NCBI GenBank assembly: GCA_050012255.1
Contig: JBEKHN010000001.1
Coordinates: 32,001-96,000 of the forward strand
From: Candidatus Bathyarchaeia archaeon
GTDB taxonomy: Archaea; Thermoproteota; Bathyarchaeia; Bathyarchaeales; Bathycorpusculaceae
Length of the DNA: 64,000 nt
Reading direction: 5' to 3'
A model generated the notes under the pieces. That model did not search any database, had not been told where the DNA came from, and saw only the letters and a list, made by a program, of their open reading frames with translations. Shown here piece after piece: positions 1 to 48,483 of this stretch. Every line of letters begins with the position of its first letter. The stretch's first letter is position 1. A program made the translations under genes and the position numbers.

Positions 1-349
1 CTGTAGCTTCGATCGAGATGGCGTAGGCAACTGCAACAGAGAGGAATATTGCATTTCTGAAGGGAACTATTATTGGTTGAGTGAAGGTTGGGGTCAGCTC
101 GATATTTTTGTCGCAGAGTGCAGTTACTCCAGTAAATATATCTTTCAAACAGCTTATATCGATGATCTTGATTGGGATGTCGAGCCTCTCAGCGATGAGA
201 TTTGCATATTTGGCTTCTTTTTCTGCTATCTGACCGTATTTGAACGTCAAAGCATGAACTTTGTAGCCTTGCTTTTTTGCCCAATATGCAACGACTGCGG
301 AATCTGGTCCTCCACTTAGTACAACAATGCACTTGTTTGCCTTAGTCAA
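1..349 (-). CDS. queC: 7-cyano-7-deazaguanine (preQ0) synthase QueC, truncated by window edge
   Basis: Not in the ORF track. Manual translation from TTG at 349 gives (M)TKANKCIVVLSGGPDSAVVAYWAKKQGYKVHALTFKYGQ...IIVPFRNAIFLSVA, with SGGxDS PP-loop, F-x-YGQ and VPxRN motifs; directly downstream of queT. Confidence 0.9.
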   Translation of the reverse strand, partial: MTKANKCIVVLSGGPDSAVVAYWAKKQGYKVHALTFKYGQIAEKEAKYANLIAERLDIPIKIIDISCLKDIFTGVTALCDKNIELTPTFTQPIIVPFRNAIFLSVAVAYAISIEAT

Positions 350-832: not shown

Positions 833-897
833 TTTTCAACCTCCTACACCGGGGTTTATGTTGGCGGAACGGGTGGAGGCCCACTCACCCGCCATTC
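833..897 (-). promoter_or_regulatory. Structured 5' leader of queT-queC (candidate preQ0/preQ1 riboswitch)
   Basis: UGGCGG/CCGCCA stem, A-rich tail AACAUAAAC, anti-SD CCUCC versus SD GGAGG; TATA-like TTTTAAG at about 921-927. Confidence 0.5.
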
Positions 898-1216
898 TGC
901 TTCGCATATTCGAGATTACTCTTAAAAGCCTTTGGGGCGCGGGCTAACCCTGTTGAGACTTTGCCCTCCGATCTACTCAAGGCATTTTGCCAACAGTCAG
1001 AGCTTGCTTGGCCACAACACTGAATAGCATTAGGCTGAACGATCCTACGGAGCAGGACCCTTCAACGTTGACATAGCATGGCATCGTTTGTCCAATCTGC
1101 CATGTCTTGGATATATCGCGCATTATTTTTCTTGGTAGTCGTGTGCACTGGAACGTGATAGGAGAAAACTTAAATCTGTCCCATAATTGTGTTCATTATC
1201 CTATTGTCGTGATGAT

Positions 1217-46866: not shown

Positions 46867-48483
46867 ATGATGTCCTTTGAAATCAGAGAAAAAGCTTTGC
46901 TTGCAAGGGTTGGCCGACTCAGAACAAAGAGCGGAACCGTCGAGACTCCCCTGTTTTTTCCGGTGGTAAACCCGACAGTCCAGCCGATCTCTCCGAGAAA
47001 GATCCGTGAAGAGTTTGGCTTTGAGGCCCTGATAACCAACGCTTACATACTGAAAAAACACTTACAGAACCAGCCTGCACAAAACGGTTTGCACGACTTT
47101 CTGGATTTCAAAGGAGCGGTGATGACTGATTCTGGGGCGTACCAGATCCTGGTCTACGGAGACGTGGAAGTAACCCCGAAGGAAATTGTTGAGTATCAGG
47201 AGATGATAGGTTCAGACATCGCCACGATACTGGACATACCGACAGGTTGGAAGGTGACGGAAGAAGGTGCAAGCGAGACCGTGATGGAAACGTTGAAGCG
47301 TGCAAGGGACTTTTTCAAACAGAGAACTAGAGACGACATTCTTTGGGTCGGCCCAGTTCAAGGAGGAAGATACCTGGACCTTGTGGCCAAATCGGCCAAA
47401 GCAATGGGAAAGCTGCCGTTCGAGATAAACGCGCTGGGAAGCCCCACTGAAGTTATGGAACGCTACAGGTTTGATGTTTTGGTTGACATGATAATGGCTG
47501 CGAAGATGAACTTACCCGTTGAGCGGCCCCTGCACCTTTTCGGGGCAGGGCACCCCTTCATGTTCGCTCTGGCAGTGGCTCTCGGATGCGACTTCTTCGA
47601 CTCGGCAGCCTACTCCCTGTTCGCAAAAGAAAATCGTTACATGACGGAGACTGGTACGGCAAGGCTGGGTGACCTGGAGTATTTCCCATGTGCGTGTCCA
47701 AGATGCACCAGAACAACCCCAAAAGAAGCATTCGAGATGCCTTCAACCGACAGGCAGGTGTTCCTTGCGGAACACAACCTCTATGTCTGCGCCGCCGAGA
47801 TGAAGCGCGTGAAGCAGGCAATAAAGGACGGCAGACTTTGGGAACATCTGCAGATGCGCGCGCACGGACACCCGTCGCTCCTTCAGGCACTCAGAAGACT
47901 GGGAAAATACCAAGATTTCATCGAAAAGAATGATCCTGTGGTGAAAAACAGCGGACTCTTCTTCTTCGACTCTGTCGACTTGACCCGACCAGAAGTTGTT
48001 CGCCACAGGAAGAGACTCGCAGGAAGATACGCTCCTCCGGCCGCAAGCATTCTGCTGCTTGTACCCCAAACCAGAATGAAGCCTTTTCACAAGTCCAGAG
48101 ATTTCAGAAAACTTGGAAGTCAACTGTCCGAAAAGCTCGGGGCGGAGCAAAGCAAGATCCACGCGTGCTTCTACGCTGCTCCCTTCGGCATAGTTCCACA
48201 CGAGCTCGACGAGGTCTATCCGCTTTCGCAGTATGAGACCGTTCTTCCTCCTGACGCGGAAACGGTGAGTTACGTTGCAGACCAAGTAGCCGAGTATATT
48301 GCACACAATAGTTATGAAATGGTCATACTGCTCAACGATTCCATAAATTGGGGAAGATCGATCCTGAAAGCGTCCAGAAAAGCCTGCTTGAAAAGCAAAG
48401 TGAGTTTTCAATGCTTCAACACTGATGAAAAGCAAGAAGAGGCCCTGCTGACGCTCTTAGGGAAAATTCTGCGCAGAAATTGA
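46867..48483 (+). CDS. tgtA: Archaeosine tRNA-guanine(15) transglycosylase
   Basis: MTDSGAYQ, LDIPT, PVQGG, HLFGAGHP, FDSAAY, CxCxxC and HNL motifs. Confidence 0.95.
   Translation: MMSFEIREKALLARVGRLRTKSGTVETPLFFPVVNPTVQPISPRKIREEFGFEALITNAYILKKHLQNQPAQNGLHDFLDFKGAVMTDSGAYQILVYGDVEVTPKEIVEYQEMIGSDIATILDIPTGWKVTEEGASETVMETLKRARDFFKQRTRDDILWVGPVQGGRYLDLVAKSAKAMGKLPFEINALGSPTEVMERYRFDVLVDMIMAAKMNLPVERPLHLFGAGHPFMFALAVALGCDFFDSAAYSLFAKENRYMTETGTARLGDLEYFPCACPRCTRTTPKEAFEMPSTDRQVFLAEHNLYVCAAEMKRVKQAIKDGRLWEHLQMRAHGHPSLLQALRRLGKYQDFIEKNDPVVKNSGLFFFDSVDLTRPEVVRHRKRLAGRYAPPAASILLLVPQTRMKPFHKSRDFRKLGSQLSEKLGAEQSKIHACFYAAPFGIVPHELDEVYPLSQYETVLPPDAETVSYVADQVAEYIAHNSYEMVILLNDSINWGRSILKASRKACLKSKVSFQCFNTDEKQEEALLTLLGKILRRN

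Follow-up and report, generated by a model that had tools for sequence, protein, structure and literature searches.

A widespread structured leader RNA of archaeal queT genes that may represent an undescribed riboswitch-like class of the preQ0 pathway

Background

To our knowledge, few riboswitch classes are documented in archaea, as was also remarked in the original prediction for the locus studied here, which had been made from the letters of a 64,000-nt stretch of a Candidatus Bathyarchaeia archaeon contig (hereafter the window). The closest described systems are the preQ1 riboswitches, of which class I (RF00522) is about 34 nt in size, binds preQ1 and more weakly also preQ0, and has its ligand pocket at the junction of its two helices. 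The specificity cytosine of this class, as part of a UC or AC, immediately precedes the 3' strand of P1, as outlined in a review of the field (PMC11625349). Following the same account, class II (RF01054) precedes queT (COG4708), has its whole SD in the pseudoknot helix and controls translation only (PMC11625349). Class III (RF02680), described from Ruminococcaceae and metagenomes (PMC11625349), also stands before queT and pairs its SD with an anti-SD in a hairpin loop (PMC11602147), which is a feature of the archaeal leader as well. All three classes are described in the review from bacteria only, and archaea are mentioned nowhere in it (PMC11625349). Archaea insert preQ0 into their tRNA according to what is outlined in PMC4770233. 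Our full-text search, which covered the main texts of papers outside subscription journals, found no description of an archaeal or Bathyarchaeia leader RNA of queT or preQ0.

Comparison with the known preQ1 riboswitches

The leader upstream of queT in the window shares several features with preQ1-I riboswitches, which likewise stand before queT/queC-type genes. The H-type topology is common to both (P1 and the tail-to-loop helix both covary in the archaeal leader), both have SD bases in the second helix with translational control expected, and P1 is likewise followed by an A-rich loop 3, with AAA before CCC in nearly all of the 190 unique rows of our structural dataset. Compared to class I, however, the leader is larger (about 58 nt vs about 34 nt), its second helix is a much longer anti-SD:SD duplex of 5 to 8 bp, its loops are long and include an internal competitor hairpin, its hosts are archaea, and its expected ligand is preQ0 instead of preQ1. 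Directly before the P1 3' strand it has G-U in 181 of the 190 rows and no specificity cytosine. Given this missing cytosine and no match to RF00522 at E <= 10, membership in preQ1-I was not borne out.

The other two classes are larger HLout pseudoknots. PreQ1-II, known only from Bacillota, contains four pairing regions, while preQ1-III is about 100 nt long and has four helices, with its pocket distant from the SD. Instead of the HLout arrangement with P1 to P4 of preQ1-II and preQ1-III, the archaeal leader shows P1, P2, and one pseudoknot helix. Rfam searches at E <= 10 found no family, including preQ1-I, II, and III, in positions 700 to 1250 of the window (551 nt), and none in 18 diverse representative loci.

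The leader of the queT-queC locus

On the minus strand between positions 897 and 830, the window has in this order P1, the nested P2 hairpin, an A-rich tail, CCCCGG, the SD GGAGG, and the TTG start codon of QueT, which is followed by QueC (Table 1). The leader comprises about 58 to 60 nt, and every leader element named in the original prediction is found on this strand where it had been placed. The letters of the GUGG at 884-881 are identical to those of the SD-proximal GU(A)GG. A single-sequence fold forms P1 and P2 with an MFE of -24 kcal/mol, which is unexceptional for the window leader (z-score -1.21; 24 of 200 shuffles fold equally well), so that this one sequence by itself proves nothing. 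The genes pdxS (SOR_SNZ) and pdxT (SNO) lie on the plus strand at 1187-2721, divergent from the queT promoter region.

Table 1. Positions of the leader elements and of associated genes in the window
Feature	Position or length	Strand	Remarks
BRE/TATA-like promoter element CCAAAGGCTTTTAAG	921..934	-	TTTTAAG at 927-921, CCAAAGG just before
Spacer, TATA-like box to P1	about 26 nt	-	
Leader GAAUGGCGGG	from 897	-	read from window sequence
P1 5' strand UGGCGGG	888..894	-	partner 862-868
L1 including strand b, UGA-GUGG	881..887	-	GUGG 884-881 is the P2 5' strand, partner CCAC 876-873
Anti-SD strand c GCCUCCAC	873..880	-	P2 loop and 3' strand, or pseudoknot 5' strand with SD
CCUCC core of anti-SD	879-875	-	complement of GGAGG 844-840
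L2 CCGU	869..872	-	unpaired, nearly invariant
P1 3' strand UCCGCCA	862..868	-	partner 888-894
L3	845..861	-	ACAUAAA 861-855, CCCC 854-851, GG 850-849, UGUA 848-845
SD GGAGG(U), pseudoknot 3' strand c'	839..844	-	UGAAAA next, then TTG start
queT, 159 aa	353..832	-	TTG start 832-830; Pfam QueT 7.3e-17
queC	2..349	-	Pfam QueC; cut by window edge, 218-219 aa in genome
Archaeal-type TGT	46903-47874	+	

In archaea, transcription usually starts about 26 nt downstream of the TATA box. The 188 unique upstream regions that we examined have an AT-rich peak (aaaaatttttta) 27 to 36 nt before P1, and 82 of them contain a TTTWAW hexamer, whose 3' end lies 26 to 31 nt upstream of P1 in 62 of these 82. From the TATA spacing, the transcript is predicted to begin a few bases before P1, which agrees with the original prediction.

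Conservation and distribution

A search with the QueT protein covered 61 related genomes and gave matches in 40 of them. Among the ten closest loci, 38 of 61 columns of the leader are invariant at 84% mean identity, while the QueT proteins encoded there are 54% to 94% identical. In these loci, the roughly 60 nt before the start codon are near-invariant, and the sequence farther upstream is unalignable. The motif is present in 29 of the 30 QueT loci retrieved by this search. The single locus without it (L014, 1385-1500, plus strand) has a longer leader of another kind, in which a P1-like hairpin and UUUACCCC come first and CCUCCGC and GUGGGGGUGA farther on. This leader may be an expanded variant of the motif.

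A covariance model of the leader (R1; best E-values down to 1e-24) matched 90 of 151 genomes of the class to which the window belongs, among them 70 of the 94 high-quality ones. In a phylum-wide sample, 35 of 151 genomes had matches, and a second class (that of genome G203) had them in 22 of 62 genomes. An exact-pattern scan with one genome per species yielded at least 120 stretches; we examined 80 loci among the matches listed, and R1 confirmed all 80 of these. Judged by the titles of these 80 listed loci, nearly all belong to Candidatus Bathyarchaeia or Bathyarchaeota, with two Methanomethylicota and a few carrying Nitrososphaerota labels. The genome of the window itself has a second copy of the motif (C7:77086-77141, minus strand; L073:1501-1556) that precedes a QueT paralogue without QueC.

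The degree of column conservation, the R1 E-values, and the presence at 29 of 30 loci place the conservation of this leader far beyond chance. The original prediction of a structured RNA leader ahead of queT and queC is thus upheld, with conservation as well as covariation clearly present in orthologous leaders, and from these comparisons the leader is almost certainly a real, widespread, structured RNA.

A second subtype of the leader, for which the separate model R3 was built, is found in 13 of the 151 genomes of the class, with a concentration in one family (5 of 14 genomes; loci L018/L283, L124/L285, L128/L284, L263, and L286-L288). Its L1 reads UGGUUG or UUGGUU and its tail AAACCCC-AAAA-GGGAGG or GGGGG, which makes a CCCC-AAAA-GGGG hairpin possible, and it has no obvious P2-like hairpin.

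A few matches were rejected. Two R1 hits with E about 1e-4 (L126:1501-1550 and L127:1501-1549) are false positives that fall within a conserved ORF of about 200 aa that is Hsp20-like; their sequences deceptively resemble a mini preQ1-I fold. Five pattern matches on viral contigs are due to chance, as they are without the anti-SD and have a QueT-family ORF downstream in 0 of 5 cases.

Covariation of the leader helices

For structural counts we pooled 224 model hits, of which 209 could be parsed to anchors and gave the 190 unique rows; the 15 excluded hits are two good ones with small deviations (L053 and L085), a degenerate one (L125), the two false positives L126 and L127, and weak ones (L264-L270 plus three with E~1). 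P1 is a stem of 6 to 7 bp that is supported by covariation. Its core is GCGG/CCGC in 170 and GCGC/GCGC in 20 of the 190 rows, with no mismatches and never mixed, and the outer pair varies among G-C (140 rows), A-U (26), G-U (10), U-A (5), and C-G (3) with 6 non-pairs. Pair 7-45 of a 96-row alignment is GC in 83 and CG in 13 rows, and G888 stands opposite U868 in 189 of 190 rows (opposite C in the remaining one).

Among the three helices, the strongest covariation signal comes from the pseudoknot in which the loop CCUCC(C) pairs with the SD. A contiguous loop-to-tail helix of at least 5 bp can be formed in 186 of the 190 rows, and its strands vary together as CCUCC:GGAGG, CCUCCC:GGGAGG, CCUUCC:GGAAGG, CCACC:GGUGG, CACCUC:GAGGUG, CCCUCU:AGAGGG, and GCCCCCU:AGGGGGC. 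The pairing is also kept in versions that are not SD-like (UUCCGAC:GUCGGAA, ACAUCUC:GAGAUGU, and GUCUC:GAGAC). Over the 96-row alignment, which was built with the pseudoknot model R2 and is hence fitted to structure, P1 and the pseudoknot have 94.6% of cells paired (84.8% when shuffled), 11 of 15 pairs changed on both sides, and a covariation of 0.274 (0.115 when shuffled) that is reached by 0 of 500 shuffles and compares to at most 0.067 in slid controls, with part of this signal (pairs 30-89 and 33-88) stemming from the different registers of CCUCC and CCUCCC.

Because this alignment leans toward the structure and contains the register artefact, the test was repeated independently of it by anchoring only on CUCC:GGAG, which is possible in 152 of the 190 rows. 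The second outer flank is then GU in 48, AU in 28, GC in 17, UA in 11, and UG in 7 rows (73.7% paired vs 58.4%), and the first inner flank is CG in 78, UA in 10, UG in 5, and AU in 4 rows (64.2% paired vs 43.2%). For both flanks, 0 of 2,000 shuffles reach the observed pairing. Shuffle counts such as this one and those above overstate significance since the genomes are related; the variety of pair types is nonetheless large. Masking of the SD by the loop CCUCC, as originally predicted, is therefore the best-supported pairing of the leader.

Other pairings that had been suggested along with it fared differently. An H-type pseudoknot between the tail CCC and the loop GGG shows no covariation (0.024 vs 0.021, with 146 of 500 shuffles as high), and it is impossible in six rows without GGG (L206, L112, L116, L096, L165, and L021); no partner could be demonstrated for the invariant CCCC(GG) when its covariation with the loop GGG was tested. 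The suggested CGGGUG/CACCCG alternative, too, is disrupted wherever P1 is of the GCGC type (20 rows). Pairing of the tail CCCC with the SD (AACC-CC/GG-A-GGUU), the second proposed way of masking, is present in the MFE structure, and RNAalifold retains only two invariant pairs of it.

The competing P2 hairpin with its 5' strand GUGG(G) is also supported by covariation. Its pair U883:A874 is UA in 152, GC in 19, and CG in 4 of the 190 rows and unpaired in 15, while the helix as a whole is weakly supported on alignment A7 (88.8% paired vs 87.5% shuffled). In divergent rows the P2 5' strand again mimics the SD, as in L206, where GAGA and GAGAC both face GUCUC. P2 and the pseudoknot are mutually exclusive because the anti-SD strand CCUCC(C)AC is common to both. 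By a rough estimate for the leader in the window, P2 has an energy of -6.9 kcal/mol and the pseudoknot duplex on its own one of -9.0 kcal/mol, close enough that a ligand could decide between the two folds.

Several unpaired segments are conserved along with the helices. The loop ends with the five bases CCCGU in 153, UCCGU in 17, and ACCGU in 8 of the 190 rows, and AAA[C/U]CCC(C)GG in L3 is nearly invariant in them. Constant in both subtypes are the G-U-G after P1, the CCGU before the P1 3' strand, and the AAACCCC that ends the A-rich loop. With helices that covary and unpaired bases that are conserved, in a 5' leader that is itself structured and conserved, the motif has what characterizes riboswitches in general.

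Downstream genes and the archaeosine pathway

Out of 100 R1 hits, 91 are followed by an ORF of at least 100 aa that starts within about 45 nt, and this ORF matches Pfam QueT in 86 of the 91 loci. When these 91 sequences were themselves used to build an HMM, which makes it circular as evidence, 90 of them matched, with a frame error in the one missed. The 9 hits without a called ORF comprise the two Hsp20-like false positives, one contig end, one degenerate case, and five without a canonical start, of which at least two (L061 and L120) resemble QueT N-termini by eye. Likewise, a QueT-family ORF lies downstream in 69 of 74 testable loci among the listed matches of the pattern scan.

A close ORF on the same strand follows QueT in 58 of the 91 loci and is QueC in 30 of these 58; in 7 of the 58, QueT is followed by a DUF998 membrane protein (alignment A8). 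At two loci (L152 and L145) the gene immediately behind the motif encodes a radical-SAM protein. All five QueE models of NCBIfam are its best hits, with alignments that cover most or all of each model and scores below the curated cut-offs. QueC comes after this QueE-like gene in L152, and in L183 the motif stands before QueC and then QueT. The leader is thus common to three gene families of the preQ0 pathway (QueT, QueC, and QueE-like), and its association with one metabolic pathway across lineages is another general characteristic of riboswitches.

The genome of the window is 98.5% complete and encodes TGT (Table 1) and one true QueC. Neither QueF nor PTPS/QueD was found in this genome, and a search for QueE gave sub-threshold radical-SAM matches only. 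The presence of TGT and QueC without QueD and QueF hints at salvage of a 7-deazaguanine precursor, and if QueD is indeed absent, what is transported or sensed could be an intermediate from earlier in the pathway, for instance CDG. No conserved regulator gene adjoining the motif was seen in the ORFs examined.

A possible switching mechanism and its alternatives

Taken together, the sequence comparisons make it very probable that the leader is a riboswitch belonging to the 7-deazaguanine pathway and that it falls outside of the three known preQ1 classes. Our preferred reading, to which we assign a probability of about 60%, is that it represents an undescribed riboswitch-like class that occurs in Bathyarchaeia and in one more class of their phylum, and that a base of the preQ0 pathway blocks translation via the SD-masking pseudoknot of this RNA. 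P1 and the pseudoknot would together form an H-type pseudoknot in which the constant unpaired bases (G-U-G, CCGU, and AAACCCC) would meet at the helix junction, and we therefore propose that they form a pocket there. The ligand bound in this pocket would be a free 7-deazaguanine from the archaeosine pathway, with preQ0 as the most likely one, and would stabilize the pseudoknot, with the guanine-like face of the 7-deazapurine pairing with one conserved cytosine to lock it. The locked pseudoknot would hide the ribosome-binding site of queT (or of queC or queE in some loci) and thereby turn translation off, while without ligand the anti-SD would be held by P2 and the SD would be free. Since subtype 2 has no obvious P2, the step that involves the competitor hairpin would not be universal, and ligand-dependent docking alone would have to act there. 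The pocket and the OFF direction are both proposals by analogy. As for the ligand, gene context (QueT, QueC, QueE-like, and no QueF found in the genome of the window) fits preQ0 rather than preQ1, and we favour preQ0 because archaea insert it into tRNA, QueF was not found, and the regulated genes make or import preQ0 precursors.

The alternatives include another effector or the opposite sign. The same SD-masking RNA might respond to CDG, preQ1, queuine, the archaeosine base, or guanine, or it might work as an ON switch in which the P1-P2 fold frees the SD and a substrate induces its transporter. Either conformer might be the one that binds the ligand, and with PTPS/QueD not found in the 98.5%-complete genome, the queT-queC operon fits salvage of a precursor that is converted by QueC; for their part, bacterial QueT leaders sense preQ1 as reviewed in PMC11625349. 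We nevertheless consider these variants unlikely, since QueF as the maker of preQ1 was not found in this genome and the position of the motif before QueE-like and QueC genes is a pattern of end-product feedback, not of substrate induction. Furthermore, preQ1 binding to known classes, in the review's description of them, occludes the SD or favours a terminator and thus lowers expression (PMC11625349).

It also seems improbable that the leader is operated by a protein or works independently of any ligand, e.g., with a repressor site in the conserved loops or with a pseudoknot that merely sets low constitutive translation of a membrane protein. SD-masking structures can work without ligands, and the mostly weak start codons (TTG in 74 of 150) are consistent with low expression. 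What argues against such a leader is that the two mutually exclusive helices both covary, that two classes have some 20 unpaired bases in common that do not vary, and that the genes associated with the motif come from three families that all belong to a single small-molecule pathway; moreover, no conserved regulator gene adjoined the motif in the ORFs examined. A divergent member of preQ1 class I, II, or III would share the queT family downstream with the known classes, and the H-type topology and A-rich loop 3 with class I, but its length of about 58 nt would fit neither the about 34 nt of class I nor the about 100 nt of class III, and Rfam gave nothing at E <= 10 for the 551-nt region and 18 loci. 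Pairing of a hairpin-loop anti-SD with the SD recalls class III (PMC11602147), yet the GU or UU before the P1 3' strand is not the UC or AC of class I, and the known classes are described from bacteria (PMC11625349). We regard this kinship as very improbable.

A more far-reaching version of the preferred reading, for which we see even odds, is that the leader represents the first archaeal class of 7-deazapurine riboswitches, i.e., a fourth, sequence-unrelated fold of the preQ family that is tuned to the archaeosine precursor preQ0 instead of preQ1 and operates by three-strand exchange (SD mimic, anti-SD, and SD) around an H-type pseudoknot in at least two classes of Thermoproteota. If true, a widespread class in archaea would place the supply of archaeosine precursors under RNA control and would provide a natural, probably preQ0-selective aptamer as well as a compact translational switch with both alternative helices visible by covariation. 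An RNA of 60 to 70 nt suffices for a direct test. The leader may also serve as a handle on SD-dependent initiation in the largely uncultured Bathyarchaeia.

Start codons behind the motif

The 150 canonical start codons behind the motif are TTG in 74, ATG in 51, and GTG in 25 cases. About 11 of 177 QueT genes have a near-cognate codon at the aligned start, 5 to 9 nt after the SD, in a survey where some of the 27 rows classified as having no start are frame errors. These codons are ATA (L073, L030, and L039), ACG (L026, L027, L025, L061, and L084), and CTG (L174, L167, and L251). The second motif copy in the genome of the window is one of the ATA cases, at a position where its relatives have TTG, ATG, or GTG.
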